Shown: positions 42,419 to 62,216 of the stretch, in pieces
Position numbering within the stretch: the first letter of the stretch is position 1
How the letters are laid out: each line of letters begins with the position of its first letter
Source: an uncultured Acidobacteriota bacterium
GTDB lineage: Bacteria; Acidobacteriota; Thermoanaerobaculia; Multivoradales; UBA5704
Assembly: GCA_963770895.1 (NCBI GenBank)
Contig: CAVYRF010000002.1
Coordinates: 2,720,001 to 2,784,000, forward strand
DNA length: 64,000 nucleotides
Direction of reading: 5' to 3'
The notes under the pieces: generated by a model
What the model saw: only the letters and a program-made list of their open reading frames with translations
Databases searched by the model: none
Told to the model about the DNA's origin: nothing
Translations under genes and position numbers: made by a program

Positions 42419-42422
42419 AGCC

Positions 42423-45400
42423 ATGGGCGTCACCATCAGCCGCGCGGCGGAGCGCGGGCAGCGGCCGGCTGGCGGCGGCGGTGGCCGGCTCGGCCTCGAT
42501 GTGCCGCCGCGGCGCGGCCGCGAGGCGGCGCTGCTGGCGCTCGCGGCGGCAGCGGCGGTGGTGGCGATCGTGCTCACCTGGCTCGCCGTGTCGCGGCCGC
42601 TCGCCGACCAGAAGGCCCGCCTGGCCGGCGGCACCCTGATCAACCTCAACGACATGCCGGCGACGGGCGGCGGCATCCTGCCGCTGCTCTCTTTCGTGCC
42701 GAGCCCGCAGGAGCGATCCTTCATCGCCGATCGCATCCGCGGCCGGCTGGCGGCGGCATCGATCGGCAACGTCGGCGAGCTGGGGCGGGTGATGGTGCCG
42801 GCGGCCGAAGTGGACGCCCGCCGTATGCCCGGTCTGGCCGCCCGCCTGGCCGCCTCGGGGCGCGATCGGGTGGCGCTGCTGTCGACGGCAGAGGTGCGGC
42901 AGCTCAAGCCGCTGGTCGTGGTGCGCACGCCGGCCGAGTACCGCACGTCCTTTATCGTCGGCGCGGTGCTGCTGCTTGCCGGGTTCGCCGCCGCCCACGC
43001 CGTGCTGCGTTTCAAGCGCTTTGGCGGCGACCAGCTGCTGCTGCCGGCGCTGCTGCTGTTCTGCGGTCTGGGCTTCGCCGTCATGGCCAGCCTGCGCGAT
43101 CCGCTGCGCGACCTGCCGCTGCACCTGCGCTTCGCGCAGGGGGTGTTCGCCGGGTGCGGCTGCTTCCTGTTGGGCGCCCTGGTCGACCTGGAGCGCTCCA
43201 TCCTGCCGCGGCGCGGGATCTGGGCGTTGAGCGCCGCGGCGCTGCTGTCGGCGCTGCTGATCGTCTTCGGCGTCGGGCCGGGGGTGAGCGACGCCAAGGT
43301 CAACTTTCTGGGCTTTCAGCCGGTCGAGCTGATCAAGCTGCTGATCGCGATCTTCCTGGCCGGCTACTTTGCCGATCGCTGGGAGCTGCTGCGCGAGGTG
43401 CCCGAGCGCCGGGTGCCGCTCGGGCCGATCCGCCGGATCTTCCCGCTGCCGCGGCTCGAATACGTGCTGCCGCCGCTGGTGGCGATCGGCCTCATCCTGT
43501 TCTTCTTCTTCCTGCAGAAGGACCTGGGGCCGGCGCTGGTCCTGGCCTGCCTGTTCCTGATCCTGTTTTCGGTGGCGCGCGGGCGCCCCGGCATGGCGAT
43601 TTTCGGGCTGGTCCTGGTCGCCGGCGCCTTCTACGTCGGCTACAAGCTGGGCTATCCGCGCACCGTGGGGCAGCGCATCGGCATGTGGCTGGCGCCGTGG
43701 GACACCTGGTTTCGCGGCGGCGACCACCTGGCGCAGGCCATCTGGTCGATGGCGGCGGGGGGAGCGACCGGCACCGGTCTGGGGCTCGGCGAGCCGGGCC
43801 TGGTGCCCGAGGCGCATACCGACATGGTGCTGTCGGCGATCGGCGAGGAGCTGGGCTTTGCCGGCCTGGCCCTGGTCGGCGTCCTCTACGCGGTCCTGGT
43901 GCAGCGCGGCCTGCGCGCCGCGCGCCAGGCGGCCACCGCCTGCGGCTTCTTTCTGGCCTTGGGCCTGACCTTGCTGCTGGCGCTGGAAACCGCGCTGATC
44001 GCCGGCGGCGTCCTGGGGCTGCTGCCGCTCTCCGGGGTCACCTCGCCGTTCCTGTCGTCGGGCCGGTCGGCGATGCTGGCCAACTTCCTGATGGCCGGGC
44101 TGCTCGCCGGGATCTCGTCGCGCGCCGCGCGGCCCGACGCGGCGCGGCCTTTCGCGGGCGGCGTGCGCTGGATCGCCGCCGGCCTTGGCCTGTTCGCCGC
44201 CGTCGCCGTGGTGCGCCTGGCCGACCTGCAGCTGCTGCGCTCCGACAGCTACCTGACGCGCGGCGCCGTGGTGCTGCAGGGCGACAACGTGCGCCGGTTT
44301 GTCTTCAACCCGCGCCTGGCGGCGATCGCCGCCACCATTCCGCGCGGCTCGATCGTCGACCGCTCCGGCGTGCCGCTGGCGACCAGCGACCCGGCCGAGA
44401 TCGCCAGCCATCGCCAGCAGCTGGCGCAGCTGGGAGCGACCGACCTGGGCGACGCGGCAACCGCGGCGCCGGCGCCGGCAGCGGCGACGGCGGCGATCCC
44501 GGCGACGCCGGCGACGCCGGGAGCCCCGGCGATCGCAGCGGTGGGGGCCGCCGGCGTCGAGCCGCACGCGCGCATCTACCCCTTCGGCGGGCGCACCTTC
44601 CACCTCCTGGGCGACGTGCGCAATCGGGTGAACTGGCGCGCCCGCAACAACTCCTTCGTCGAGCGCGACGCCCGCGTCCGCCTGCAGGGCTACGACGATT
44701 ACGCCGGCGTGGTGCCGGTTCGCCAGACCAACGGCAGCGAATCGCCGCAGGTGATCGTCGACTATCGCGAGCTGGTGCCGCTGCTGCGCCACCGCTACCA
44801 GCCGGACGATCCGCGGGTCAAGGCGATTCTGCAGCGCGACAGGACGGTGCGCCTGGCGATCGACGTGCGGCTCCAGCTGGCTGCCGAAGACGTGCTGCAG
44901 AAGGCGGCGGCACAGGCCGGTTTCGGCGCCGCCGCGGTGGTGCTCGACGCCGCCACCGGCGACCTGCTGGCGGCCGCGTCGGTCCCCTTCCCGGCGCACC
45001 TGCCGGCCGATCTGGGCGGCGACGCGAGCGGCGCGCTGCTCGACCGCGCCCGCTACGGCATCTACCCGCCGGGATCGACGTTCAAGATCGTCACCGCCCT
45101 GGCGGCGCTGCGCAAGGATCCGGCGCTCGCCACCCGCACCTTCGAATGCAAGCGGCTGCCGGACGGCCGCGTCGGCAACCGGGTGGAAGGGCGGCTGGTG
45201 CGCGACGACCCCACGGCGACGGTGCCGCACGGCACCGTCGACCTGGACCGCGGCATCCGCCACTCCTGCAACGCCTACTTCGCGCAGCTCGCGGTGTCCG
45301 GCGTGGGGGCGGCGCCGCTGCTCGCCACCGCCCAGCTGTTCGGCATCCCGATGGCGCGCCCGAACACCGCCGCCATGCTCGCCAAGGCCCTGCCGCAGGC

Positions 45401-45869
45401 GGCCTACGGTCAGGGCCAGGTGATCGCCACGCCCTTCCAAATGGCGCGCGTCGCGGCGGCCATCGCCGCCCAGGGGCAGATGCCCGAAGGGCACTGGCTG
45501 CTGGGCGCCGACAACCCGCGTTCAGGAGCGCCGGCGCAGGTGGCCGATTCCGCGGCGGCGACGATCGTCGCGCGGGCGATGCGCGGGGTGGTCACCGAAG
45601 GCACCGCGGCGGCGTTTCTGTCCGGCGTCCAGCCGCCCATCGCCGGCAAGACCGGCACCGCCGAGGTGCAGGACAAGAAATCGCACTCCTGGTTCATCGG
45701 CTTCGCTCCCTACGGCGACAACGCGCGCCGCCGCCTCGCCTTCGCGGTCATCGTCGAGCACGGCGGCTATGGCGGCAGGCTGGCGGCACCGGCGGCGGGG
45801 GAGATCGTGCGCCGCGCGGCGGCGATGGGCCTGTTCGACCAGGACGTGCCAAGGAGGACCGCCGAATGA
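42423..45869 (+). CDS. SEDS (FtsW/RodA) glycosyltransferase fused to a class B PBP transpeptidase
   Basis: SEDS motifs QPVELIK, QKDLG, PEAHTD, LPLSGVTSPFLSSG; PBP motifs PRGSIVDR, SxxK (STFK), SxN (SCN), KTG. Confidence 0.92.
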   Translation: MGVTISRAAERGQRPAGGGGGRLGLDVPPRRGREAALLALAAAAAVVAIVLTWLAVSRPLADQKARLAGGTLINLNDMPATGGGILPLLSFVPSPQERSFIADRIRGRLAAASIGNVGELGRVMVPAAEVDARRMPGLAARLAASGRDRVALLSTAEVRQLKPLVVVRTPAEYRTSFIVGAVLLLAGFAAAHAVLRFKRFGGDQLLLPALLLFCGLGFAVMASLRDPLRDLPLHLRFAQGVFAGCGCFLLGALVDLERSILPRRGIWALSAAALLSALLIVFGVGPGVSDAKVNFLGFQPVELIKLLIAIFLAGYFADRWELLREVPERRVPLGPIRRIFPLPRLEYVLPPLVAIGLILFFFFLQKDLGPALVLACLFLILFSVARGRPGMAIFGLVLVAGAFYVGYKLGYPRTVGQRIGMWLAPWDTWFRGGDHLAQAIWSMAAGGATGTGLGLGEPGLVPEAHTDMVLSAIGEELGFAGLALVGVLYAVLVQRGLRAARQAATACGFFLALGLTLLLALETALIAGGVLGLLPLSGVTSPFLSSGRSAMLANFLMAGLLAGISSRAARPDAARPFAGGVRWIAAGLGLFAAVAVVRLADLQLLRSDSYLTRGAVVLQGDNVRRFVFNPRLAAIAATIPRGSIVDRSGVPLATSDPAEIASHRQQLAQLGATDLGDAATAAPAPAAATAAIPATPATPGAPAIAAVGAAGVEPHARIYPFGGRTFHLLGDVRNRVNWRARNNSFVERDARVRLQGYDDYAGVVPVRQTNGSESPQVIVDYRELVPLLRHRYQPDDPRVKAILQRDRTVRLAIDVRLQLAAEDVLQKAAAQAGFGAAAVVLDAATGDLLAAASVPFPAHLPADLGGDASGALLDRARYGIYPPGSTFKIVTALAALRKDPALATRTFECKRLPDGRVGNRVEGRLVRDDPTATVPHGTVDLDRGIRHSCNAYFAQLAVSGVGAAPLLATAQLFGIPMARPNTAAMLAKALPQAAYGQGQVIATPFQMARVAAAIAAQGQMPEGHWLLGADNPRSGAPAQVADSAAATIVARAMRGVVTEGTAAAFLSGVQPPIAGKTGTAEVQDKKSHSWFIGFAPYGDNARRRLAFAVIVEHGGYGGRLAAPAAGEIVRRAAAMGLFDQDVPRRTAE

Positions 45870-49960: not shown

Positions 49961-50192
49961 GCATGCCGTCGCGAATACTGCGCATGCCGAATCCTCACGG
50001 CTCTGCCTATCCGGAGTATCGAATCTCTAGGCTCGATATCCCAGGCGATACAAGCTTTGCTAGTCCCGGCAGCCTCCACACGCGGGCACTGACAAAGGGG
50101 GCCAGTGTCTCGGCACTTGAGGGCCTCGAAGAGCGCGCAGCTGCTCTGAATGTCGGCGAGTGGTTCGACACCGAGGACGAGAGTTCCTGAGC

Positions 50193-50435
50193 ATGCCTAA
50201 GCGCCCGCGCAGACCGCGAGATCCGTTCCAATTGGCGCACCAGATGGTCCGGGAGGTCATCGGAGAGGCACCCCGGCAGGTCCCGCCTACTCCCGACGAC
50301 AGTCCGGCCGGGGTCGCCAAGCGCAAGGGAGCGAGCCAGGGCGGTGAGAAGAGGGCGAAGCGACTCACGCCCGAGCGCCGCCGAGAGATCGCCCAGAAGG
50401 CAGCCGCGAGTCGATGGAACAGGCGTCCCGGGTGA
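50193..50435 (+). CDS. Small basic protein with a GG..RA..LTPERRREIA motif
   Basis: MPKRPRRPRDPFQLAHQMV...GGEKRAKRLTPERRREIAQKAAASRW, a motif I recognise from small proteins found near IS1-like transposases. Confidence 0.75.
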   Translation: MPKRPRRPRDPFQLAHQMVREVIGEAPRQVPPTPDDSPAGVAKRKGASQGGEKRAKRLTPERRREIAQKAAASRWNRRPG

Positions 50436-50472
50436 TGGTACGGCGCGGGGAATGGCGCGCCGCCGGGGTGCT

Positions 50473-51063
50473 TTACCTTCGGGAGCCCTGCGGTCGCGGC
50501 CGGTAGTCACGCGGATCTATGCAGCCGTCGTACAGCGCGCGGTCAATTCGCAGCCAGTCGGTGCCATTGATGCCGCGCGTGTTAGTGGCGATAGAGCTAA
50601 CGGGAAAGGCCGACGCCATCTTCACCCATCTCCCCTGCTGCCTGGAGATCTTTCGTACCTCTTCAGCAACCTCCCCCAAATCCTGATCCTGACTAAACAC
50701 CAACGTCACGTCGCAGCGCCGCTCAAGGACGGAGCTGACGACATCGAGAGCGATGCGGACGTCTATCCCCTTCTCCTTGCCGTGGCGGAGAGGCCGCGTG
50801 AAGGTGTAGGCGCCGCGCCGGCCGAGCTGCGCTAGCTTCGCGTTCCAAAACTGGGTGCGGGGGTCACCCGCATCTGGGGCCGGGATGCCTGTGTAAAACC
50901 GTACCTGCTGAAGGGTCCAGGAGCGCTGCCTACAAAGAGCTGCGGCGAGGCAAATAGGGTCGTAGTTCGGGAACCTGTACTCGAAAGCCTCTTTCGCTGC
51001 GTTAAAGAGGTTTTGACCGTCGAAGAAGGCAACAGTCCGCTTGGTCAGGGGCTCGGTAGGCAT
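50473..51063 (-). CDS. NYN (LabA/DUF88, PIN-like) domain nuclease
   Basis: FFDGQNL, EKGIDVRIALD and SQDQD catalytic acidic motifs. Confidence 0.9.
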   Translation of the reverse strand: MPTEPLTKRTVAFFDGQNLFNAAKEAFEYRFPNYDPICLAAALCRQRSWTLQQVRFYTGIPAPDAGDPRTQFWNAKLAQLGRRGAYTFTRPLRHGKEKGIDVRIALDVVSSVLERRCDVTLVFSQDQDLGEVAEEVRKISRQQGRWVKMASAFPVSSIATNTRGINGTDWLRIDRALYDGCIDPRDYRPRPQGSRR

Positions 51064-51077
51064 TAGACAACGTCCCC

Positions 51078-51166
51078 AAAACACAAAACCCCGTCCGAGG
51101 CCTTGCGGCGTGTCGGGCGGGGAGCAATTCCTTCGTAGTTTGCCACGGCTTTAGCTCCTTCGTCAA
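51078..51166 (-). promoter_or_regulatory. Promoter and structured terminator-like leader of the NYN gene
   Basis: TTGACG-N18-CAAACT with an upstream TG, then a CCCCGCCCGA...UCGGACGGGG stem with an inner GCC-GCAA-GGC loop and a UUUUGUGUUUU tail. Confidence 0.6.
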
Positions 51167-51314
51167 ACTCCATACAGGCTCCCCGTCGAGCCGGAGGTTT
51201 AGGCCAAGCTGAAAGAGGCGCGCCCCCTTGGGCGCCTCAGATAGTACGCCAATAGCCGCGTCTGACGCAAGAGTTGCATCAGTGTCACTGACGACGCATT
51301 CGTCGCCTCAGTCA

Positions 51315-51343
51315 TTGACACGTCACTCGCGGCCAGGTAGACT
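51315..51343 (+). promoter_or_regulatory. sigma70-type promoter
   Basis: TTGACA-N17-TAGACT upstream of the ORF at 51385. Confidence 0.65.
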
Positions 51344-51384
51344 CTCCTGTGCTGGCTCTCTGAGCACAGATAGGAGGTCGGGCA

Positions 51385-51927
51385 ATGTCTGAGGTCGTAG
51401 AGAAGATCAAGGCTGACCTGGCATTCTGGCAGGACGCAATGGCGAAGGCCCGAGAGACCCTGACGGCCGGCGAGAGCATCGTGCCGGGCTTGCTGGAGTC
51501 CCTCGCGAAGCTGAATGGTCACCCGCCTACAGGGGACCAGCTCACAGAGCCAGCGCAGCCGGCTATGCCGTCACCGACAGAAACTACCGCAGCCGAACCG
51601 CCGGCAACAGCGCCCGCAACACCGCCAGAAACCGCGCGCCGTCGGCGCACCTGTGTCGAGGAGGTCGAAGCGGAACTGTTGAGAAACGCGCCGCTAAGTT
51701 CACATGACCTAGAGATGATCCTGGCAGCCAATGGCACTCCGTACGGCCCCGGAGCGGTCGGTTACGCGCTTCGCGATCTGATGAGAGCTGGCCTCGTCGA
51801 AAGGGTCGAAAAGCGAGGCAACCTCTGGTTCTATCGGCACGCAATAGTGCCAAAGGAGGTGGTGACTGACGCCCTTAGTCGCCATGTCCCCGCGCACGCC
51901 GTCCAAGTGATCCGGGGGAGCAGGTAA
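51385..51927 (+). CDS. Hypothetical protein with an N-terminal helix and C-terminal winged HTH
   Basis: AGGAGG RBS; Pro-rich linker; AVGYALRDLMRAGLVERV wHTH-like pattern. Confidence 0.7.
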   Translation: MSEVVEKIKADLAFWQDAMAKARETLTAGESIVPGLLESLAKLNGHPPTGDQLTEPAQPAMPSPTETTAAEPPATAPATPPETARRRRTCVEEVEAELLRNAPLSSHDLEMILAANGTPYGPGAVGYALRDLMRAGLVERVEKRGNLWFYRHAIVPKEVVTDALSRHVPAHAVQVIRGSR

Positions 51928-51989
51928 ATCCTGCCCAGTTTCTTCCTGGCTAGGGCCGACCTGGGGCGGGGGGTGGACTGAGGTGCATC

Positions 51990-52027
51990 GCCTGGCTGCC
52001 TTTCGCGAGAAGGCGGCCGGGCTTTTT
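51990..52027 (+). terminator. Intrinsic terminator upstream of the transposase
   Basis: gcctggctgcctt...aaggcggccgggc stem followed by TTTTT. Confidence 0.75.
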
Positions 52028-52074
52028 GTTTCTTGCACAGATCGGCATAGCCTGTCAATTCTAACTTGTAACCA

Positions 52075-52103
52075 TTGACTTTACACCACATGGCAAGCAT
52101 AAT
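52075..52103 (+). promoter_or_regulatory. Transposase promoter
   Basis: TTGACT-N17-CATAAT, with the ATG 7 nt downstream. Confidence 0.7.
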
Positions 52104-52110
52104 GTCTAGT

Positions 52111-52974
52111 ATGGCAAACGTGCTCAGCACCGCGAAGCGGGTCGCCATCATCTCCGCCCTTGTGGAGGGAGTCAGCGTTCGGGCCACAGCCCGCATGTTC
52201 GACGTGTCCAAAGACACCGTGATGAAGCTCGGTGTAGACCTGGGCGAGGCGTGCGCCCGCTACCAGGACGAGACGCTGCGGAACCTGATCTGCAAGCGCC
52301 TGGAGGTAGACGAGCTGTGGGCGTTCGTGTACGCCAAGGCCAAGAACGTGCCGGCCGAACGGGCGGGCGAGTTTGGCTGCGGCGACGTGTGGACGTTCAC
52401 CGCCATTGATGCCGATACGAAGCTGATGCCGTCCTTCCTGGTCGGGACTCGGGACGCTGGCTGTGCGACCGAGTTCATGCAAGACCTGGCCTCGCGCCTG
52501 GTCAACCGGGTCCAGCTCACGACGGACGGCCATAAAATGTACCTCTCGGCCGTCGAGGAAGGCTTTCAGGGCCAGGTGGACTTTGCGCAGCTGGTCAAGA
52601 TCTACGGCGCCGCTCCCGAGGGCGAGAAGCGCTATAGCCCGGCCGAGTGCATCGGGTGCGAGCGCATCGGCGTCACCGGCAACCCGGACCCTAAGCTGAT
52701 CTCGACGTCCTACGTGGAGCGGGCCAACCTGACTATCCGCATGAGCGTCCGGCGCTTCACGCGCCTGACCAACGCCTTTTCAAAGAAGCTGCGGAACCAT
52801 ACGGCGGCCTTCGGGCTCTTTAGCGCCCACTACAACTTCTGCCGCATCCACAGGACGCTGCGCTGCACCCCTGCCATGGCGGCTGGGGTGACTCCGCGGC
52901 TGTGGTCGATCGAGGATTTGGTGGGGTTGCTTCCGGCCGTCCCGCACGTCGGCGGCCGACCCAAGAAGAACTAA
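52111..52974 (+). CDS. IS1-family DDE transposase
   Basis: N-terminal HTH (EGVSVRATARM), VDELWAFV, WTFTAID, TTDG, STSYVERANLTIR..RRFTRLTNAFSKK. Confidence 0.92.
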   Translation: MANVLSTAKRVAIISALVEGVSVRATARMFDVSKDTVMKLGVDLGEACARYQDETLRNLICKRLEVDELWAFVYAKAKNVPAERAGEFGCGDVWTFTAIDADTKLMPSFLVGTRDAGCATEFMQDLASRLVNRVQLTTDGHKMYLSAVEEGFQGQVDFAQLVKIYGAAPEGEKRYSPAECIGCERIGVTGNPDPKLISTSYVERANLTIRMSVRRFTRLTNAFSKKLRNHTAAFGLFSAHYNFCRIHRTLRCTPAMAAGVTPRLWSIEDLVGLLPAVPHVGGRPKKN

Positions 52975-53077
52975 GTGGGACTACCCGGCCCAGCGCGCCT
53001 TGGGCGAAGCCGCCTGCTCCGTGCTACGCTCTCGCAGTTCAAGCTCCGGCAGGCGAACCGTTCCCACCAAGCCCGAC

Positions 53078-53613
53078 ATGTCGTTGCCGCCCGACCGCGT
53101 CGCAGAGGTCATCGCCCGGCTGCGCGACCTCATACCGCAGCGCTTCGGCGTGGCGGTAAACCTGGTCGACGTGCCGCCGCCGTTTCTAGGCGATCTGGAC
53201 GGCGCCGAAATCTACATCCAACGCGACGAACCGGGCGAAGCCCTGCTCTTCACCCTGGCCCACCTCTTCGGCCACACCGTGCAATGGAACACCAGCGAGC
53301 GCCTCCGCACCCTGGGCGGCCGCAAGGACACCGAGTACACCGCCGCCGAGATGCAGGAGGTCGAAGACTACGAGCGCGACGCCTCCCGCTACGGTCTTCA
53401 GCTCCTGCACGAAGCCGGCGTCCACGACCTGGACCAGTGGCTGACCGACTTCGCCGCCTGCGACTTCGCCTACCTGAAGCACTTCTATCAGACCGGCGAA
53501 CGCCATTCCCCGCTGGACTTCTGGCGCGACAACCAGCCCCTCTTCGACCCGCGCCCCATCCCCCCTTCACCCCCACCCGCCACAAGCTCCGCTGGCAAGG
53601 CGTCGTCGTCTAA
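53078..53613 (+). CDS. Hypothetical protein with an HxxxH motif; probable frameshift in a C6 run near the 3' end
   Basis: MSLPPDRVAEV...LAHLFGHTVQW. As sequenced the ORF reads to 53707, overlapping the convergent AAA gene. One extra C at 53560-53565 would give ...IPPFTPTRHKLRWQGVVV* ending at 53613. Confidence 0.6.
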
Positions 53614-53620
53614 CCCATCA

Positions 53621-55618
53621 CTAGCGGCGGTTGCCGATGGTGGCGCGGAGGAGGCGGAGGCGGGTATCCAGCTGGTCGGGGGTGAGGTTGGCGTATTTGG
53701 GGGGTAACAGGCGGCGGCTGCTGGATTCGAAGACGGCCAGCAGCTCCATGTAGTCCAGGAGCTCGGTGTCGCGGCTGGGGAAGTAGTCGGCGGCGGCGGC
53801 TGTGAAGTGGTCGGCGGTGACCGGCGGATCGGCTTCTGGCGGGGGCGGCGGGGCGGGGCGGCCGGATGGGACGGGGCAATCCGGCGCGGTGGGACCGGCT
53901 TCGCCGGCGCCGCTTGCGTTGCCTGCGTCGTTGGCGTCGTTGGCGTCGTTGGCGTCACTGGCGGCGCGGGCGGCGTTGTCGTTGGCCAGGAGGATGACGG
54001 CTTCGACGTCGGCGTTGCTCCAGCCGACCATGCGGCGGGAGAAGGCTTCGCGGATGGTGGCGAAGTCGACGTCGGTGTGGATGTGATTCTTGCGCACGAC
54101 GGCGCGGGCGACGGCTTCGACTTCCTCGGGGGTCTGCGAATAGAGGAAGGGGATCTTGCGGTCGAGGCGGCCGGCGCGCTTCAGGTCGACGTCCAGCTTG
54201 TCGGGGCGGTTGGTCATCACCAGGAAGAGGATGCGCCCGCGATTGGTGGTGTCGGACATGAACTCCTTGATGCGCGCGATGACGCGCGAGGAGGTGCCGC
54301 CGTCGCCGTCGCCGTCGGAGGAACCGAAGGCGCGGTCGCCTTCGTCGATGATGACGATGACCTGGCCGATGGCCTGGATGACGGTGAGAATCTTTTCCAG
54401 GTTGCCTTCGGTCGCGCCGACCCACTTGGAGCGGAAGTTTTTCAGCTTGATGGCGGCCAGCCCGCACTCCTTGGCGAAGGCTTCGGCGACGAAGGTCTTG
54501 CCGGTGCCCATGGGGCCGGTGAAGAGCATGCCCATGGGCACGCGGCTGAGGCGCCCTTCGCGCATGTTGCGCGCGACCAGGGCCAGCTCGCGCTTGACCT
54601 CGTCCATGCCGCCGACCGCTTCGAATCCGTGCTCGGGCCGCACCAGCTCGACCAGGCCGTAGCACTCCCGCGCCAGGATCTCGCGCTTGCGGGCGACGAT
54701 GAGCCGCGCCGCTTCGGCGTGCATGCGCTCGCCCGCGTCGGCGGTGGACGCTCCCGCGGCCCCCGTCGCCGCCCCGGCGCCGGCCGCCGTGGCCGCCGCG
54801 CCCTTCGGCGCGAGCAGGGCGCGGATTTCGTCGCGGTCCAGGCCGGCGGTCAGCGCGGCGAGCTTGGCGGCCCGCGCCGCGGCGTCGGCGCCGCCGCCGA
54901 GCAGACCGGTGATGAAGGCGCGGCGCTCGTCGTCGTCGGCGACGGCGGGGGAGGGGGGCGCCAGGATCGAAGCCAGCTGCAGGGCTTTGAGGCCGCCGGT
55001 CAGGGCGGCGTAGCGCGCGGCTTCGGCTTCGTCCAGGGCGGGGTCGGCGAGCTGGGCGACCGCCATCCGGGTGGCCTGATCGGGCATCGGGATCTCTACC
55101 ACCGCGACCTTGGGGTTGGCGACCAGCTTGGGGGCCAGGTCGGTCAGGTTCTCCGCCACCAGCAGCACCACGTTGTCGCCCTTCTCGATCTCGGGCAGGA
55201 AGCTCCAGCGGTGCAGGGTCACCACCGCGGCGCGATCGGCATCGGTCTGGAATGCCGGGTCGCCCGCCGGCGCCAGGTTTTCGGCGTATTCCAGGACGAC
55301 GGCGATGCGGGTGCCGCCGGTGAGCAGCTTTTCGAGGCCCGCCAGGGTCTCTTCCTTGGCGCCGCGCTGCGCCAGCTCGGCCGGAACGTCCAGGCCCGGC
55401 GCGCGCTTGCGGAAGCGGACGCCGGTCGCCAGGTTGTAAAGGACGATCGTCTCCTTGTTGTCGCCCAGAAGCGGCCCGGCCAGGAAGTCGGCGAGCGGCA
55501 GCATGGTCTTGCGGTGCACCACCAGGTCGAAGACGTTGCCGTGCAGCACGAACATCGAGGCCTCACCGCGCAGATAGCGCGCGCGCAGGTCGTCGGCCCA
55601 GGCGGGAAGGAAGCTCAT
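53621..55618 (-). CDS. Classical-clade AAA+ ATPase (CDC48/Vps4-like) with a degenerate N-terminal AAA domain
   Basis: ATG overlaps the upstream stop. Walker A GPMGTGKT, pore loop SKWVG, Walker B IIIDE, sensor-1 TNRPD, Arg fingers KRAGRLD. Confidence 0.9.
53925..53957 (-). repeat. 9-bp coding tandem repeat (DAN units)
   Basis: gcgtcgttg x3 plus a partial unit inside the AAA ATPase. Confidence 0.75.
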
Positions 55619-56661
55619 AGCGTGCGCTCGAGCCCGCCCAGCAGCTGCTCGGTTTCGCGGCTGGTTTCGCGCACCGCTTCGACGCCGTCGAGCAGGTCGT
55701 CGAGCTGGCCCGACAGCTCTTGCGGCGACTGCATGGTGACGATCTGGTCGGCGATCAGCTGGAAGGAGTTTTCGATCAGGTCGAGCTGGCCTTTGGCGAC
55801 CGTCAGGTAGCGGCGGATCTCCTGCTGCTTTTCCACCCGCTTGGTGACCACCGCCAGGTTGCGCTTGGCGATGCCGGCGGCGGCGGTGTCGTCGCCGGCA
55901 TCTTCCGCCGCCTGCTGGTAGCGGCGCCGCTCGCGTTCCAGCCCCGCCGGGTCGGCGCTCTGGAGGTACGCTTCGTAGCGGGCGCACGTCCTGGCCATCT
56001 CGACGAATGCGTCCACCAGGCGGTCGGTCTTGACCAGCTCGCTCTGCATGAGGTCGCCGGCGAAGGTGGGGTTTTCCGCCGCCAGGCGGCGGATCTCGGC
56101 CTGGCGGGCGGCGAGCGCGTTGACCCGGTCGAGCGCTTCGTCGGGCAGGCCCGCCAGCCGGCGCGCGCGGTCCTGCGCGTCCAGCATCTCCTTGAGCCGC
56201 GCGAAGCGCGGGTCCCACAGGATGTGGCGCAGGCGCTTGCTGTCGGGAGCGAACAGCAGCCACAGCGCCTCGAACCCCAACGTCCCCAGCGCCAGCAGCG
56301 GGTTGGCCGTCAGCAGCGCCGCCGCCAGCCCGCCGCCGACCAGCGACAGGTTGAAGGGGTTGGCAAAGGCCATCTTGAAATACGACGGCGTTGCGCCGCG
56401 GTCGCGGTCGCCGTAGACCGCCCCGCGCTCGGCGCCGGCCGGGGGGCGATAGTCGTCGCGGATCTCGGCCGCGGCGGCGGGCTGCCGGCGCTGCGCCAGC
56501 GGCTGCGCCGCCGTCATCGGTGCCCGCCCAGGCTGCTGCTGCTGAGGCTGGGGCGGCGCCGGCGCGAACGGAGCGCGTCCCACCGCCGGTGCCATGGGCG
56601 TGCCGGCCGTGCCGGCCGGACGCGGCGCCGCCGTCGCGGGCGCCTGCCGCTGCTGCGGCAC
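55615..56661 (-). CDS. Membrane-anchored coiled-coil protein
   Basis: Hydrophobic hairpin (NLSLVGGGLAAALL..LWLLF) followed by long heptad helices; coupled to the AAA gene. Start uncertain (56661, 56595 or 56517). Confidence 0.75.
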   Translation of the reverse strand: MPQQRQAPATAAPRPAGTAGTPMAPAVGRAPFAPAPPQPQQQQPGRAPMTAAQPLAQRRQPAAAAEIRDDYRPPAGAERGAVYGDRDRGATPSYFKMAFANPFNLSLVGGGLAAALLTANPLLALGTLGFEALWLLFAPDSKRLRHILWDPRFARLKEMLDAQDRARRLAGLPDEALDRVNALAARQAEIRRLAAENPTFAGDLMQSELVKTDRLVDAFVEMARTCARYEAYLQSADPAGLERERRRYQQAAEDAGDDTAAAGIAKRNLAVVTKRVEKQQEIRRYLTVAKGQLDLIENSFQLIADQIVTMQSPQELSGQLDDLLDGVEAVRETSRETEQLLGGLERTL

Positions 56662-56749
56662 GGCATGGGGCTGTTCCTTTTGGCTGCTATCCACGGCAAG
56701 GGTTCCACCGCCCGCGCTGGCCGGGTCCGTAACGGCACCCGCCTGCCGG

Positions 56750-57664
56750 CTAAACCTTGGCAGGCGGAGTGTAAAGCAGATCCAGCAGCTTTTTCTCCAC
56801 CGCCCGGAACTCCGCCGAGGACTTGAGGTTGATGTCGCGGTGGGCGAAGTACGGCACGTCGACGCGATGGAGGATGCGCGCCGGCCGCGACGACACGATG
56901 TAGACGGTGTCCGCCAGGTAGACCGCCTCGGACACGTCGTGGGTGACAAAGACGATGGTGTTGTCCTCGGTCTGGGACACGTCGAGCAGCAGTCCCTGCA
57001 TCCCCCAGCGGGTCTGCGGATCGAGGGCGCCGAACGGCTCGTCCATCAGCACCACGTGCGGCCGGTTGATCAAGGTGCGCGCGATGGCGACGCGCTGCTT
57101 CATGCCGCCCGACAGCTCGCGCGGGTAGCGGTCGCCAAACTCCGCCAGGCCGACCGAGTGCAGGTACTTGTCGGCCTGCGCGCGGCGCGAGTCGGCCGGC
57201 ACCCCCTGCAGCTTGAGCCCGTATTCCACGTTGGCGCGCACGGTCAGCCAGGCAAACGAGGTGTAGGCCTGAAACACCATGCCGCGGTCGCGTCCCACTC
57301 CGGTGACCGGTTCGCCGTGCACCAGCACCTCGCCCGCAGTGGGCACGATCAGGCCGGCGATGGTCTTGAGCAGCGTCGACTTGCCGCAGCCCGACGGCCC
57401 CAGAAACACCACCAGCTCTCCCACTCCCGGCTTGTCCAGGATGTCGAAGGACAGGTCGCGCACCGCCTCCAGCCCGACGCCGTGGTGGTCCAGGTAGCTC
57501 ACCGACAGGTTGCTGACGCGCAGCTTGGGAACCTGGTCCGTGGGCTCGGCGTGGTAGGTCGGCCGGTCTCGCGTGTCGGCGGGCGGCGTGATGGCGACGG
57601 TGCCGGGCTCGCCCGCCTGCGGGGCGGGCGCCGGAGCCGTGCTGGGAGTTTCGGAATCGATCAT
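56750..57664 (-). CDS. ABC ATP-binding protein (TauB/SsuB-like)
   Basis: GPSGCGKS, LSGGMKQR, LMDEPFGALD, VTHD. Confidence 0.93.
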   Translation of the reverse strand: MIDSETPSTAPAPAPQAGEPGTVAITPPADTRDRPTYHAEPTDQVPKLRVSNLSVSYLDHHGVGLEAVRDLSFDILDKPGVGELVVFLGPSGCGKSTLLKTIAGLIVPTAGEVLVHGEPVTGVGRDRGMVFQAYTSFAWLTVRANVEYGLKLQGVPADSRRAQADKYLHSVGLAEFGDRYPRELSGGMKQRVAIARTLINRPHVVLMDEPFGALDPQTRWGMQGLLLDVSQTEDNTIVFVTHDVSEAVYLADTVYIVSSRPARILHRVDVPYFAHRDINLKSSAEFRAVEKKLLDLLYTPPAKV

Positions 57665-57671
57665 GGGCTGC

Positions 57672-58475
57672 TCATTCGACCGTCGACTCGCGCCAGCGGA
57701 ACAGGTAGTCGGAGAGCGACCGGATGAGGTAATCGGTCAGCAAGCCGATGCCGCCGATCACCAGCAGGCCGGCAAACGACCACGAAGCCTTGAAGTGGGT
57801 GCGCGCCAGCTCCACCATGTACCCCAGGCCGCGCTCGGGATTGACCAGTTCGGCAAGGATCACGTACGTCCACGAAATGGAGTTCATCACCCGGAACGAA
57901 TCGAAGATCTCGGGCAGCGCCGCCGGCACCAGCACGGTGCGCACCACCTGCGCCTTGCTGGCTCCCAGCGTCAGCGCGGTCTGCACCAGCTCTTCGGGCA
58001 CGGCGCGAATCGAGGAGACGACCACCGGCAGCAGGTAGACGAAGACGCCCAGGAAGAGAAAGGCGATCTTTTCCTTCTCGTAGATCCCGAACCACAGGAT
58101 GAGCAGTGAGATGAACGCCGAGATCGGCATGTAGCGCAGCGGCGCCATGATCGGTTCAAAAAAGCGATTGATCGGCTCGAAGGCGCCCATCGCGACGCCG
58201 ATGGGCAGTGCCAGCGCCGAGGCCAGCAGGAAGGCCAGGGCGATCCGTCGCGTCGAGACGAGGATCGCCACGCCCAGATCGTACTGCACGAACAGCTGAA
58301 TCGTGCCGCGCACCACTTCGGTGGGCGACGGCAGGAAATCGGGTGGTGCGAACCGCCCGTAGGTCAGCACGCACCACACCAGGATGACCAGGCACGGGGC
58401 GACAAACCCCAGCGCGAACGAAATCGTCCGCGGCAGAGGCTGGCGCAGCGCGAAGAGGTCCCGCCGTCGCGCCAT
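57672..58475 (-). CDS. ABC permease (TauC/SsuC-like)
   Basis: LPSPTEV, EAA-like loop ELVQTALTLGAS, ILAELV; TGATG overlap with the upstream gene. Confidence 0.9.
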   Translation of the reverse strand: MARRRDLFALRQPLPRTISFALGFVAPCLVILVWCVLTYGRFAPPDFLPSPTEVVRGTIQLFVQYDLGVAILVSTRRIALAFLLASALALPIGVAMGAFEPINRFFEPIMAPLRYMPISAFISLLILWFGIYEKEKIAFLFLGVFVYLLPVVVSSIRAVPEELVQTALTLGASKAQVVRTVLVPAALPEIFDSFRVMNSISWTYVILAELVNPERGLGYMVELARTHFKASWSFAGLLVIGGIGLLTDYLIRSLSDYLFRWRESTVE

Positions 58476-60112
58476 CAGTTCACCGACAGGATGACCTTGA
58501 TCTCGGTGCGGCGGTTGAGCTCCCTGCCCCCTTCGGTGGAGTTGGACGCCACCGGATTGGTCGAACCGCGACCGATGGTCTGGAAGCGGTTGGGGTCGAC
58601 GCCGGGGAAGTTCTTGACGACGTAGTTCTTGACCGCCAGCGCCCGCCTTTCGGACAGCGTCATGTTGGTCTTGGCGCTGCCAGTCGTGTCGGTATTGCCT
58701 TCGATGCGCAGGTAGGTGTTGCCGAACGAGGTCATCGTTTCGCCCAGCGAATCGAGCACGATGTAGGACCCTTCCATGATCTCGTCGGAACCCGGGGTGA
58801 AGTGGATCTGGATCTGCTTGTTGATGATCGCCCGGTCGTTGGCCGACGGCGCCTTGGCGGCGAGCGTCGGCTCTTCCACCTTTTCGCCGGGGAAGTCGGA
58901 GGCCAGCGCGGCCAGGAAGCGCGTGTCGGCCCAATCCTTGGCGTCGACGGAGCGGGTCACCAGGCCCTTTTTGCGCCAGATCACGAAGGCGGTGTTGAAC
59001 AGGGTTTCATAGTGAGAGTGGCCGCCCGCCAGGCCGTAGAACTGCGCGTTGTCGGCGTAGCCGGTCAGCTTGAGGCCGGACAGCATGCCCGACACCGTGT
59101 CGGAGTCCAGCTTGAGCGCCTTGCCGACCAGGGCATCGGCGGTCGTCGGATCTTTTTTGATCGCCTCGATGCCCAACAGCCAGCCGTGCACGAAGTCGCG
59201 GATGCTGTCGGGTGCGCTGTCGATCACGTCCTGCCGCGCCACCAGGGTGTCGGCGATGATGTGGGTGGCGGCGGTGGTCGAAACCAGTACGTGCGCCTCG
59301 CTGCCGCGCGACGCCACCGCCCCCGACAGGTCGGGCTCCCAGGTCACCGCGGCGTCCACCTGGCGGGCCTTGAACATCGCCGCCGCGGCCGGCGCGTCCT
59401 GGGTGAAGATGATGTTCTTTTCCACCTCGGCGCGCTCGTCGGGGGTGAGCCCGGACTGCGCCAGCAGGTAGAGCAGCAGGAAGTGCGACGGCGTGAACTG
59501 GGTGCAGGAGATCTTGTGCCCCTTGAGCTGTTCGATCGAATTGATCGAAGCGAGCGACACGATGCCGTCGCCGCCGCGCGACCAGTCCTGCATCACGATC
59601 GACTTGCCCTTCTGTCCCTGCTCGGCCAGGATCGAAGCTTCGCGCGCCCAGGTGTCCACGGTGTCCCACATGACGTCGATGTCGCCCTTGCGGAAGGCGG
59701 CCAGCTTGGTGGCCGGATCTTCCAGCAGCACGAACTTGACGTCCAGGCCGAAGCGGCGGCTGTAGCCCGATCCGGGATTGGGATCCATGCCGTTGTTGAG
59801 CACGATGCCCGGCGAGTGGCCGGCCCAGGTGTTGATTCCCACCACCAGCGGCCGCGTCAGCTTGCCGCCGCCGCTGAGCGCGGCGGGGGTGACGCCGGCG
59901 GCGCCGGTGTCACGCTTCGGGTCGGCCGGGGCGTCCTTGAGCGCCGCAAAGTCCTTGGACGAATCGGCGCTGCCTGCCGCGGCATCGGCCGGATTGCGTT
60001 CCGCGCCGGCCCAGCGGCGGATGGTGTTGCCCTCGTAATGCCATGCGGCGTATCCCAGCACGGCCAGGATCACCACGGCTATGAACAGCTTCGCGAACGG
60101 CGTAAGTCGCAT
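58475..60112 (-). CDS. Substrate-binding protein (SsuA/NMT1-like) fused to a C-terminal OmpA-like peptidoglycan-binding domain
   Basis: N-terminal TM/signal; PBP2 motifs DWSRGGDGI and DAAVTWEP; OmpA motifs IEGNTD, LSERRA, NRRTEI. Confidence 0.88.
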   Translation of the reverse strand: MRLTPFAKLFIAVVILAVLGYAAWHYEGNTIRRWAGAERNPADAAAGSADSSKDFAALKDAPADPKRDTGAAGVTPAALSGGGKLTRPLVVGINTWAGHSPGIVLNNGMDPNPGSGYSRRFGLDVKFVLLEDPATKLAAFRKGDIDVMWDTVDTWAREASILAEQGQKGKSIVMQDWSRGGDGIVSLASINSIEQLKGHKISCTQFTPSHFLLLYLLAQSGLTPDERAEVEKNIIFTQDAPAAAAMFKARQVDAAVTWEPDLSGAVASRGSEAHVLVSTTAATHIIADTLVARQDVIDSAPDSIRDFVHGWLLGIEAIKKDPTTADALVGKALKLDSDTVSGMLSGLKLTGYADNAQFYGLAGGHSHYETLFNTAFVIWRKKGLVTRSVDAKDWADTRFLAALASDFPGEKVEEPTLAAKAPSANDRAIINKQIQIHFTPGSDEIMEGSYIVLDSLGETMTSFGNTYLRIEGNTDTTGSAKTNMTLSERRALAVKNYVVKNFPGVDPNRFQTIGRGSTNPVASNSTEGGRELNRRTEIKVILSVN

Positions 60113-60151
60113 AAGGTCTCCTCGATCGTCGAGCGGCGCGGGGGGCCAGCC

Positions 60152-60865
60152 CTACATCGTCTTCTGGCCCTGCGCTGCCTGGGCGGCGGCGCGCTTGGCT
60201 TTCAGCTCCGCAAGCTGCTGCTTGGCCTGCACGTCGCCGGCCTGGGACTTGAGCTGAGCCAGGCGCGAGTCGAGCGACGACTCCGCCAGCTCGGTGCCCA
60301 GGTTGGCCTCGGCGATGATGTTTTTGATGTGATCCCGCACGTTGTCCAGCGCCTTGACTTCGGCATCGACGGACAGTCCGTCGAGCTGCGACTGGATGCG
60401 CATGCGCGCCTGCGCCGACTGCATGCGGGCGAGCATGGTGTCGCGCTCGGCCTTCAGCTTCTTGATGTCGGACTGCACCGACAGCAGCGACTGCTTGGCG
60501 GAGTCGGCGTCGTGCTGCGCCGTGGTCAGGTCGCCCTGCAGCTCGCTCAAGTCGCTTGTCAGCTGGTTTTTCTTTTGAATCAGGATGATCGCGAGATCGT
60601 CCTGGTTGTTCTCGACCGCGACGGCCAGCTCGGCCTCGGTCTGCGCCAGCTCCTGGGTCGTCTGCTTGGTCTTTTCGCCCAGGTCTTCGCGGCGCCGCAG
60701 GATCGCGGCGGTCGCGCTCTTGAGCTTGGAATACTTCTCGATCATCGAATTGATCGCGTTTTCGTAGGCGATCTCGGGATGATCCTTCTCAATATCGGAA
60801 ATCCACAGCGAGAGGAAACCGCGCCAAAGGTTTCCCACCCGTGCGAAGAAACCGCTGCCAGCCAT
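60152..60865 (-). CDS. pspA: PspA/IM30 (ESCRT-III superfamily) protein
   Basis: N-terminal amphipathic helix [13 protein letters not shown], conserved DxP (EKDHPE), long coiled coil with DDLA, C-terminal QLAELK; 237 aa. Confidence 0.85.
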
Positions 60866-61554
60866 CAGGCGCTCCTTTCGGACGACTTGTCAGGCGTTGC
60901 CGGCGCCGCCTTGGCCGCCGCCGCCGGGGCATGCCCGAAGAATTCGAGCACGCGCGCCACCGCGAGCTTGCCGTCGGTGCAAGCCCGTTCCACTGCCTGC
61001 TGCTCCGCCACCCGTTGATCCATCACCTGCTTGATCCTCTGGATCTCCTGCTCGAACTGCGCGATCCGCTGCTGCGAATCGGCGAGCACCTTGCGCGTAT
61101 CGCCGGCGCCGGCCGCCACGTAGGCGTCCAAGGCACGGATCTCCTTGTCGCCGGCGCCGATGATGCGATCGACCGGCACGCCGAACGCCTTGAGCGACGC
61201 CTCGACGATCTGCCGCGCCGGGTCGCTGCCCGCCGGCAGAGCCTGCAGCAGCTCCGCCGCCTTGGTCACCTGCGCCTGTTCCTCCGCGTCGATCCCCGCC
61301 GCGGCATACACCGCGGCAAAGTCCACCTGCCCCCCCGGCGCCGCCGGCGGATCCGTCACGAACGCCGCGCTGCCGTCCGCCACTGCTGCCGATGTTGCCG
61401 GTGTGCCGTCCGTCGCTGTACTACTGTACGGAGCCGCGTCGCCGGAGTTGCCGGCCGTGCCGGCCCCGGCCGCATCGTCGGCAGCCGCAGGTTTGTCGTC
61501 GCGCTCCACGAACAGGCCCAGAACGCTGGAACCCCAACCCTTTTTGTCGCTCAT
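60865..61554 (-). CDS. Hypothetical helical/coiled-coil protein, first gene of the PspA operon
   Basis: [17 protein letters not shown].., a low-complexity linker, then [11 protein letters not shown] and a coiled coil ending VLEFF; TGATG overlap with pspA. Confidence 0.78.
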
Positions 61555-61753: not shown

Positions 61754-62008
61754 TCAGCGGTAAATCTCTCGCCGGTGTCCGATCCGCACCACCAGCACGG
61801 TGAGCTCGCGTTCCTGGACTTCGTACACGATGCGATAGCTGCCGACGCGGAGCCGGCGTAGCCCGGAGAACTCGCCTTTGAGCGCGCCACCGGCATGAGG
61901 CTGGTTCGAGAGGCGGTCGATTGCCGCCACGAGGCGTTCGCGCTCGGCGCGAGGCAGGGCTTGGAGTGACTTTGCCGCGCTGGCCTTAATCTTGACCGAG
62001 AAGCTCAC
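61754..62008 (-). CDS. relE: RelE/ParE-family toxin
   Basis: AAKSLQALP..LKGEFSGLRRLRVGSYRIVY..VVRIGHRREIY. Start at 62008 or 62017. Confidence 0.9.
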   Translation of the reverse strand: MSFSVKIKASAAKSLQALPRAERERLVAAIDRLSNQPHAGGALKGEFSGLRRLRVGSYRIVYEVQERELTVLVVRIGHRREIYR

Positions 62009-62207
62009 GCCGGACATCTTTCCAATCCAGGACTGGGTCGGCAGGGTCCTCCAGCCGCTCGAGGCCCAGCTTGAGGTCCTCCAAGTCGTCGAGGTAGTAC
62101 TCGATGGCCTGACGGATCAGGTCGGCGCGCGTACGGCGCAGCCGCTTGGCAGCGAGGTCCATTTCTTTGACCAGCGGTTCGGGAAGTCGGGCGGAGATTT
62201 GCGACAT
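61986..62207 (-). CDS. CopG/RHH antitoxin
   Basis: MSQISARLP..RTRADLIRQAIEYYL with an acidic C-terminus; overlaps the toxin; AGGAG RBS. Confidence 0.88.
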   Translation of the reverse strand: MSQISARLPEPLVKEMDLAAKRLRRTRADLIRQAIEYYLDDLEDLKLGLERLEDPADPVLDWKDVRRELLGQD

Positions 62208-62216
62208 GTTCACTCC

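Follow-up and report, generated by a model that had tools for sequence, protein, structure and literature searches.

A seven-gene cluster around a PspA gene

In a stretch of 64,000 nucleotides from an uncultured Acidobacteriota bacterium (assembly GCA_963770895.1, contig CAVYRF010000002.1, positions 2,720,001 to 2,784,000; the window in what follows), we analysed a cluster of seven genes at positions 53621-61554 of the minus strand, in which a gene of the PspA/IM30 family stands together with genes for an ABC transporter, a membrane protein and a tandem AAA protein. All seven open reading frames are intact, with zero internal stops, and very probably they make up one functional system. In reading order, with lengths in amino acids (aa), they are:

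G1, 60865-61554, minus strand: 229 aa, no known family
G2, 60152-60865, minus strand: 237 aa, PspA/IM30, ESCRT-III superfamily
G3, 58475-60112, minus strand: 545 aa, NMT1/SsuA-type solute-binding domain followed by OmpA_C
G4, 57672-58475, minus strand: 267 aa, ABC importer permease of the TauC/SsuC type
G5, 56750-57664, minus strand: 304 aa, ABC ATPase of the TauB type
G6, 55615-56694, minus strand: 359 aa, protein with a putative membrane hairpin and a helical bundle
G7, 53621-55618, minus strand: 665 aa, predicted tandem AAA protein

The start of G6 was picked from the ortholog alignment, and we take it to be the GTG at 56694 because the orthologs start at the matching place. An initial annotation made from the sequence alone had described seven co-oriented genes with three stop/start overlaps, which is what the junctions give: they measure -1 nucleotide (G1/G2), +39 (G2/G3), -1 (G3/G4), +7 (G4/G5), +55 (G5/G6) and -4 (G6/G7), the overlaps being of 1 nucleotide at G1/G2 and at G3/G4 and of an ATGA at G6/G7. 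A consensus scan returned zero promoter-like sites, and its 6 terminator-like sites are no excess over the 5.5 expected from shuffles. Around the cluster the G+C content is about 68%.

Families were assigned by comparing bit scores with the curated cut-offs of Pfam and with the equivalog cut-offs of NCBIfam, and the families named initially (PspA, solute-binding protein with OmpA_C, permease, ATPase and AAA) all score above the former. For G2, the match to PspA_IM30 (PF04012) over residues 6-225 of 237 reaches 70.4 bits against a cut-off of 33.9, and the ortholog alignment has a mean column identity of 83%. Against the equivalog models for proteobacterial PspA it scores 44.8 bits, far under the cut-off of 242.95, and it is therefore a member of the PspA/IM30 family and not an ortholog of the E. 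coli type. It is the only copy of PspA in its genome, which comprises 8.16 Mb in three contigs and is 94.95% complete. Models for PspB (PF06667), PspC (PF04024) and Snf7 (PF03357) gave zero matches in this whole genome, and of the 25 genome matches to sigma-54 activators (PF00158) none lies inside the window, the nearest being at 2712572-2713075 of the contig. The absence of PspB, PspC and PspF from the window, as annotated initially, thus extends for the first two to the whole genome, and the locus lacks both the PspB/PspC partners and the divergent PspF beside pspA by which a canonical Psp system is recognised. It shares with the canonical systems (PspF and PspABC of E. coli; ClgR-PspA-PspM-PspN of Mycobacterium) that a dedicated membrane protein is encoded alongside PspA, and with E. 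coli that there is an AAA+ protein, PspF, that contacts PspA; PspF, however, is a transcription factor from another AAA+ clade and not a classical AAA unfoldase.

This type of cluster was already catalogued in 2024, and what is new here are added tests and counts. Ravi, Anantharaman, Aravind, Gennaro and colleagues (mSystems 2024, PMC11237479) give the same neighbourhood in their Table S3 and Text S2.2, running from a protein designated X through PspA, a solute-binding protein with OmpA, a permease, an ABC ATPase and a transmembrane protein to a tandem AAA protein; their example, OGG56892.1 from Candidatus Handelsmanbacteria, follows the order in the window gene for gene, and shorter forms are given from Archangium, Salinibacter and Clostridium. 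The same source calls the membrane protein a "divergent Snf7" and the first AAA domain inactive. In the parts of the paper that concern the cluster, it is treated in one row of a table and in a few sentences, free of counts and experiments, and those passages contain neither the permuted orders and the three-gene core nor the frequencies in the phylum and the PspA tail motif described below. The matched passages of Popp et al. (2022) do not mention the cluster, and our literature search found no bench work on it. The initial statement that no functional description was known therefore holds for experiments and fails for the architecture, which PMC11237479 both lists and briefly discusses.

A tandem AAA protein with a predicted inactive first domain

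The last gene of the cluster, G7, can be divided into three parts:

54809-55618, minus strand: N-terminal half (residues 1-270), degenerate AAA domain according to AlphaFold2 and Foldseek
53960-54637, minus strand: active classical AAA domain (residues 328-553), PF00004
53621-53959, minus strand: C-terminal part, a low-complexity insert followed by a conserved helical tail

The match to PF00004 reaches 93.1 bits (cut-off 21.2) over residues 364-491, and the domain reads as fully equipped, with a Walker A motif (GPMGTGKT), the pore loop SKWVG, a Walker B motif (IIDEGD) and the arginines R481 and R484 in RAGRLD. The intact pore loop and arginine fingers of the initial annotation are thus found again, and they are conserved: in a 36-sequence alignment of the family, reaching down to 28% identity, Walker A, the V-G of the pore loop, Walker B, R481 and R484 are invariant, and the sensor-1 threonine is nearly so. 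The helical tail (residues ~600-665) is likewise conserved across the family. The insert before it, at residues ~545-595 (nucleotides 53834-53986), consists of Asp/Ala/Asn repeats and a subsequent proline-rich run; it is absent from the 21 aligned orthologs and specific to the window.

The N-terminal half carries no recognisable nucleotide-binding motif, having HGNVFD at the position of the P-loop, with no Walker A lysine and no GK[ST]. An AlphaFold2 model of residues 1-325 (predicted local distance difference test, pLDDT, of 89.6) nevertheless places an AAA-like fold from about residue 20 onwards, and a Foldseek search of the PDB with this half returned at least 500 chains at E <= 0.001, the best being p97 N-D1 (7.8e-9, probability 1.00). 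The kinship is visible by fold search alone, hhalign giving a probability of 0.4% for the half against the active AAA domain of the same protein. The fold of this half confirms the inactive first AAA domain of Ravi et al. as far as their passages describe it, and by both model and motifs we take G7 to be a tandem AAA protein in which a nucleotide-dead first domain precedes a live classical second one.

The initial annotation had called the ATPase "Vps4/CDC48-type", of which the Vps4 part falls. The closest solved structures to the active domain are the D2 domains of p97/Cdc48 (whole-chain E of 4e-42), and the top PDB matches are all p97. Among the NCBIfam models, CDC48 scores highest (80.6 bits), followed by PAN (66.9), FtsH (65.9) and CdvC (43.6), all far under their cut-offs. 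We rejected an assignment to Vps4/CdvC, the N-terminal half being an AAA fold and not an MIT domain, and the CdvC score of 43.6 (cut-off 650) lying below those of CDC48, PAN and FtsH. Membership in Cdc48 was rejected as well: with Cdc48, p97 and VAT the protein shares two AAA folds per chain, its active domain resembling D2 and its N-terminal half D1 of p97, but it has no double-psi-barrel N-domain, its first domain has lost the nucleotide motifs, and its score against the CDC48 model TIGR01243 is 80.6 against a cut-off of 802.65. On model scores and PDB ranks, which stand in for a phylogeny in this placement, G7 thus appears to be a classical AAA protein of its own family that works like an unfoldase and is a member of neither Vps4 nor Cdc48.

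The cluster is conserved and survives rearrangement

To scan for close relatives we used G7 and one genome per species, keeping the best 80 of 190 confirmed relatives; the loci of these best 80 all bear Acidobacteriota titles, from the four lineages Thermoanaerobaculia, Pyrinomonadaceae, Holophagales and Vicinamibacterales. Loci with at least 6.5 kilobases (kb) upstream of the ATPase gene were taken as informative (n = 53), and in 48 of the 53 all seven genes are present in the same order and on the same strand, an arrangement far beyond chance. The co-occurrence of the ABC genes with the PspA and AAA genes in other genomes, on which the initial annotation had made its proposal depend, is thus found, and it is found after rearrangement too. 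Of the five exceptions, one (L002) has unrelated genes between G6 and G7; in two (L015 and L018) PspA stands directly before the ATPase and a distant set of OmpA_C protein, permease and ATPase lies downstream; in another (L054) such a distant set is inverted between PspA and G6; and in the last (L021) it lies inverted immediately before G6, and neither G1 nor PspA was detected within 10 kb upstream. A locus too short for the 53 (L061) has a protein combining SBP_bac_3 with LysM, and a flavin amine oxidase with a twin-arginine translocation (TAT) signal, between PspA and G6 (L061:1564-4287, minus strand). The two stand where the OmpA_C-fused ABC module sits elsewhere, and in the SBP_bac_3-LysM protein a binding protein is joined to a wall domain for a second time, independently, so that, judged by domain content, the combination of a binding protein with a wall-binding domain recurs in non-orthologous forms.

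To obtain frequencies for the phylum, we used an even sample of 401 Acidobacteriota species genomes, of which 58 have a relative of the N-terminal half of G7 and 124 have a PspA. PspA and the G7-type ATPase are at most 15 kb apart on one contig in 33 of the 58 genomes, at a spacing of 4.5-6.5 kb in 20 genomes, below 4.5 kb in 12 and of 8.3 kb in one. We then inspected 30 of the sampled loci, a non-random choice of 14 distant hits and 16 adjacent pairs, with profiles made from our own alignments and with Pfam. The arrangements among these 30 are:

PspA, solute-binding protein (with or without OmpA), permease, ATPase, G6 and G7: 13 of 30
All seven genes, in the order of the window, with one insertion: 1 of 30
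All seven genes, circularly permuted, in two orders: 3 of 30
PspA, G6 and G7: 4 of 30
G1, PspA, G6 and G7: 1 of 30
PspA and G7: 2 of 30 (L090, L113)
ATPase without PspA: 6 of 30

PspA, AAA protein and ABC module are thus found together in 17 of the inspected loci, PspA and AAA protein without the ABC module in 7, and the AAA protein without PspA in 6. One of the permuted orders (L085 and L111) reads G7, G1, PspA, solute-binding protein with OmpA, permease, ATPase, G6, and the other (L110) reads permease, ATPase, G6, G7, G1, PspA, solute-binding protein with OmpA. PspA, G6 and the ATPase make up the conserved core, to which the ABC module is an optional yet recurrent addition, and G1 is found in some lineages. 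Since the link between the PspA/AAA genes and the ABC genes outlasts both permutation and non-orthologous replacement, we consider it to be functional and not accidental. Spread of the cluster beyond the Acidobacteriota is indicated by the examples in the relevant passages of Ravi et al. and by weak taxon hints from the ESM Atlas.

G1 itself has at its N-terminus a conserved hydrophobic motif rich in Trp, then an Ala/Pro-rich linker that varies, and lastly a helical C-terminal domain that is again conserved (37-sequence alignment). It matches no Pfam or NCBIfam family above cut-off, a profile search of the PDB gave noise, and hhalign gave a probability below 2% for G1 against PspA and likewise for G6 against G1. 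Its nearest ESM Atlas clusters are unnamed, with Myxococcota as the commonest taxon. The G1 profile matches in the clade of the window and in L085, L109, L110, L111 and L112. It gave no match in the 13 six-gene loci, for 9 of which the open reading frames directly upstream of PspA were listed.

A motif at the end of PspA tracks the ATPase

The PspA of the window ends in a short motif at the tip of its C-terminal tail:

60155-60163, minus strand: last three residues of PspA, K-T-M, a shortened form, particular to the clade, of [KR][TEDS][LMI]G[PSA]

All 39 of 39 PspA proteins of the clade end at K-[TS]-[ML] (KTM in 35, KTL in 3 and KSM in 1). In more distant PspA proteins adjoining the ATPase, the full motif [KR][TEDS][LMI]G[PSA] follows a variable low-complexity linker and lies within the last 17 residues in 19 of 21; of the two exceptions, one reads NAMGP and the other is a member of the close clade. 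For comparison, we took 20 further PspA proteins from the same phylum sample. The motif is found in 0 of 16 from genomes without a match to the N-terminal half of G7, one of the 16 being of the same PspA sub-type (211 bits), and it is also absent from the PspA of a genome whose ATPase is of a kind found beside beta-propeller and tetratricopeptide repeat (TPR) proteins, making 0 of 17 controls in total. Conversely, it is present in 3 of 3 PspA proteins whose genome has a G7-type ATPase elsewhere on the chromosome. The motif thus tracks the presence of the G7-type ATPase and, as far as such sequence patterns tell, looks like an unfoldase recognition tag.

The MIM motifs of ESCRT-III proteins are short motifs at the tail end. 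The arrangement at our locus matches this logic, in that a protein of a polymer-forming kind has a short conserved motif ending a flexible C-terminal tail, and it resembles the Vps4/ESCRT-III pair also in that the gene of an ESCRT-III-superfamily protein adjoins that of a classical AAA ATPase. It differs in that G7 has a degenerate AAA domain in the place of MIT and in that no Snf7-family protein was detected in the genome.

The behaviour of the motif bears on an explanation offered by Ravi et al., namely that the AAA protein is a chaperone for assembly or quality control, which assembles or extracts membrane complexes such as the ABC transporter, the wall-tethered binding protein or G6 under envelope stress, PspA sealing the membrane and not being the substrate. 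The stop-to-start overlap of G6 and G7 would suit such a role, as would the occurrence of the same ATPase family beside partners other than PspA, such as the beta-propeller and TPR proteins. A chaperone of this kind would not be expected in the two-gene form, in which PspA and the AAA protein occur without a membrane partner (L090 and L113, and in the Clostridium example of PMC11237479 as given there), nor would it explain why the tail motif of PspA follows the presence of the ATPase even where the two genes are unlinked. We therefore consider this explanation unlikely.

The membrane protein of the core

For the sixth gene the initial annotation had given a transmembrane coiled-coil protein; the membrane segment stands, and the remainder is better described as a membrane hairpin and a helical bundle than as a plain coiled coil. 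G6 begins with a disordered Pro/Gln/Ala-rich tail (residues 1-100), after which residues 113-151 (nucleotides 56242-56358) form two short hydrophobic helices, 113-129 and 132-151, with a conserved Asn-Pro between them whose proline is invariant in close orthologs. Residues 153-358 form a long, all-helical bundle of six helices in an AlphaFold2 model made from a 54-sequence alignment (pLDDT above 90 over residues 100-359). In this model the helix pair can be read as a membrane hairpin, and the bundle weakly resembles BAR domains. In a library of 1.84 billion proteins, 825 representative clusters belong to the family at E <= 0.001, 430 remain at 1e-10, and the nearest named cluster in the ESM Atlas is Rv2743c (PspM) with a score of 0.87, which we treat as a lead only.

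The "divergent Snf7" label given to this protein in the passages of PMC11237479 was not reproduced, none of the comparisons that we ran supporting it. In Pfam, no family lies above cut-off and 47 members searched at E <= 10 agree on no consistent family, PF03357 (Snf7) not being among the 25 listed of the 54 families that they matched. The G6 alignments against the PspA alignment gave hhalign probabilities of 0.1% and 0.4%, and profile searches of the PDB returned nothing or noise. Foldseek against the PDB found zero matches at E <= 0.001, with a CdvB2 filament chain at rank 45 (E of 0.44), and a wide fold search with VIA-align had no ESCRT-III chain among its best 50, comparisons that are rigid and may miss shape-changing ESCRT-III proteins, Snf7 itself being compared through the PF03357 model.

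The outcome of these searches matters for the idea that PspA, G6 and the ATPase act as an ESCRT-like scission machine, which cuts or buds membrane, in vesicle release or division, at wall sites set by the OmpA_C protein. Here one could point to the place of PspA in the ESCRT-III superfamily (Liu et al. 2021, PMC8281802, in the part consulted) and to the pairing of a PspA gene with an AAA gene, which is like that of ESCRT-III with Vps4. With no ESCRT-III chain among the best 50 VIA-align matches of G6, no genes for division or vesicles as a context in the window, and only 58 of the 401 phylum genomes possessing the ATPase, hence no core division machine, we find this idea very unlikely.

In the clade of the window, G6 often has [ED][KR][TSEK][ML] at its very C-terminus (nucleotides 55618-55629, minus strand; 10 of 47 aligned sequences), which resembles the K-T-M of PspA in the same genomes; the ending is not conserved in distant relatives of G6.

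A binding protein that may be tied to the cell wall

OmpA_C domains form a family of peptidoglycan-binding domains. In G3 such a domain occupies residues 438-534 (nucleotides 58511-58801; OmpA 69.0 bits, cut-off 27.2), behind a solute-binding domain at residues 116-325 (nucleotides 59138-59767; NMT1 35.9 bits, cut-off 20.5) and an N-terminal hydrophobic segment that is an anchor or a signal. OmpA_C proteins anchored in the inner membrane (MotB, and YiaD- and Pal-like lipoproteins) match the C-terminal domain at up to 106 bits, and PDB matches to OmpA_C domains go down to 3e-17, those to an SsuA structure just to 4e-4; our literature search found no described fusion of a solute-binding domain to OmpA_C. 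G4 matches BPD_transp_1 at 66.1 bits (cut-off 26.4), and G5 matches ABC_tran at 110.5 bits (cut-off 25) with Walker A, signature, Walker B and H-loop motifs that read as intact. Judged by these matches, G3, G4 and G5 together form a NitT/TauT-type importer (type I) that is complete and intact. The permease and the ATPase match TauC and TauB types, as in TauABC and SsuABC, and differ in scoring below the equivalog cut-offs (127.7 bits for TauC; 211.3 bits for the taurine-type ATPase, cut-off 357); the same applies to G3 and SsuA_fam (68.1 bits, cut-off 163.5). Because all equivalog scores are under their cut-offs, no substrate can be assigned to the transporter. The hydrophobic N-terminus and wall-binding C-terminus of G3, together with the LysM variant of L061, suggest from domain architecture that tethering to the wall may matter more than the solute.

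The completeness of the importer would also fit a system devoted first of all to the uptake of a solute (a sulfonate, a taurine-like or nitrate-like compound or an osmoprotectant), with PspA, G6 and the ATPase as co-regulated helpers that have no physical link to the transporter, and a 2026 preprint (10.64898/2026.10.24.761521) describes, in the part consulted, 15 phage PspA genes that have full sets of ABC transporter genes next to them. A binding protein fused to a wall-binding domain would be unusual in plain nutrient uptake, though, and PspA and the AAA protein keep an ABC module beside them through two permuted orders and through replacement by non-orthologous modules, while 7 of the 30 inspected loci have the core without a transporter. 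A system of this sort thus seems quite unlikely.

A possible PspA-recycling module of the inner membrane

Taking these observations together, we propose that the cluster encodes a PspA-centred module for maintenance or remodelling of the inner membrane with its own ATP-driven motor, in which G7 recycles PspA through its tail, a proposal that we regard as evenly poised between right and wrong. Like other PspA/Vipp1 proteins, PspA would form polymers on the cytoplasmic side of the membrane, where G6 would anchor or organise it. Hexamers of G7 would engage the C-terminal tail motif of PspA, extract or unfold subunits and so recycle the polymer, doing the job that Vps4 does for ESCRT-III by means of an unrelated recognition device. 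The wall-tethered ABC part could either import a protective solute or signal periplasmic conditions to the cytoplasmic part, and our analysis cannot choose between the two. In favour of the proposal we count the synteny, the adjacency of the genes, the permuted orders, the replaced modules, the tail motif, the motifs of the ATPase and the overlaps between genes. A precedent for polymer disassembly read from a tail is provided by a 2025 preprint (10.1101/2025.05.20.655051), according to which, in the part consulted, cpHsc70-1 binds the C-terminal tail of VIPP1 and controls the disassembly of its oligomers.

Several points weigh against the proposal. Binding of G7 to PspA, ATP-dependent disassembly and co-transcription are predicted parts of it. 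In L002/L109, the closest sampled relative, about 8.6 kb of unrelated genes lie between G6 and G7, and 25 of the 58 genomes with the ATPase have no adjoining PspA, 7 of them with no PspA match and 3 at contig ends. In three of the six inspected loci without PspA (L086, L089 and L093, at about 8.2-13.2 kb in each), the AAA protein (~555 aa) lies between a PQQ/BamB-like beta-propeller protein (~495 aa) and a TPR protein (~645 aa) with no PspA nearby, a conserved trio that, from its gene content, appears to be a system of its own, as yet uncharacterised, with the same motor. A search of plasmids gave no match to G6, and it found distant relatives of the N-terminal half of G7, at 22% identity, on two plasmids from Bacillota, where the annotation shows no PspA within 7 kb. 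The ATPase family is thus not exclusive to PspA and serves other partners too. As to the tail motif, the genomes in which it was counted are related and thus no independent observations, and the motif could equally dock G6 or G1 instead of the ATPase. The transporter, finally, offers no pointer to its substrate among scores that are all below the equivalog cut-offs. A complex prediction for full-length G7 with PspA scored 0.00 against a mark of 0.32, that is, "no answer", and we draw no inference from it.

One could also speculate on a more comprehensive scheme that joins all parts. The cluster would then represent an ATP-driven recycling of an ESCRT-III-superfamily polymer that bacteria evolved for themselves, in which a tandem AAA unfoldase with a dead first ring reads a short C-terminal tag on PspA (a device convergent with the recognition of MIM by the MIT of Vps4), G6 provides a BAR-like scaffold with a membrane hairpin, and the binding protein, spanning from inner membrane to wall, gates the machine from the periplasm, its docking on the permease reporting how far membrane and wall are apart. 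We hold this scheme to be doubtful; if it were true, the cluster would be a trans-envelope, mechanosensing machine for repair or remodelling.

What makes the recycling proposal worth pursuing is the question of how the PspA/Vipp1 polymers of bacteria come apart, to which the cluster would be a compact and conserved candidate answer; a 2025 review (PMC7619361) states, in the part consulted, that a Vps4-like ATPase is apparently absent in bacteria. The candidate set comprises a single PspA, a dedicated AAA unfoldase of the classical kind and a putative tag of 3-5 residues, and is testable with two proteins and a tail mutant. The tie between a solute-binding protein and the wall, through OmpA_C and in one case LysM, may in addition reveal a sensing of envelope geometry.

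Surroundings of the cluster

Directly upstream of the cluster lies a gene for a ParE-type toxin (61754-62017, minus strand, 57.1 bits), overlapped by a small open reading frame (61986-62213, minus strand) that is a possible antitoxin; elsewhere, the pair is represented by one weak parE match among the 80 loci. On the other side, the G+C content of 50000-52999 is 0.60-0.64 against about 0.69 around it, and this segment contains an open reading frame for an IS1-like transposase (52075-52974) and one for an NYN-domain protein (50473-51084); given the low G+C content and the transposase, mobile DNA has probably been inserted downstream of the cluster.

PspA owes its name to phage-induced stress. 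This, the toxin gene just upstream and the transposase gene downstream might be taken to indicate that the cluster is a membrane-acting conflict system, that is, an anti-phage or abortive-infection module. Matches to the PHROGs phage families point the same way: G7 matches phrog_8638 (function unknown, profile length 568) over residues 299-547 with 118.7 bits, PspA matches phrog_33389 over its full length, and by these profiles phage versions of both may exist. Yet PADLOC 2023 gave generic matches only (P-loop matches, a ZorB/MotB match of the OmpA_C part, and one to IetA with 30.4 bits), the flanks are not conserved, with one parE match and zero transposase matches among the 80 loci, and the gene order, shared by several classes of the phylum, speaks for vertical inheritance rather than for a mobile island. 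We consider a conflict system highly improbable.

Converging on the 3' end of G7 is a gene for a 235-aa protein (53000-53707, plus strand) with no Pfam family and an H-x-x-x-H stretch. Two other genomes have a homolog (43% identity) within the cluster: one lies between G6 and G7 on the same strand (L031:9340-9969, plus strand), and the other between G5 and G6 on the opposite strand (L078:7794-8336, minus strand); the protein may be an occasional accessory of the cluster. Further away in the window, at 42420-45869 on the plus strand, a protein of 1149 aa has an FtsW/RodA/SpoVE domain fused to a penicillin-binding transpeptidase domain.

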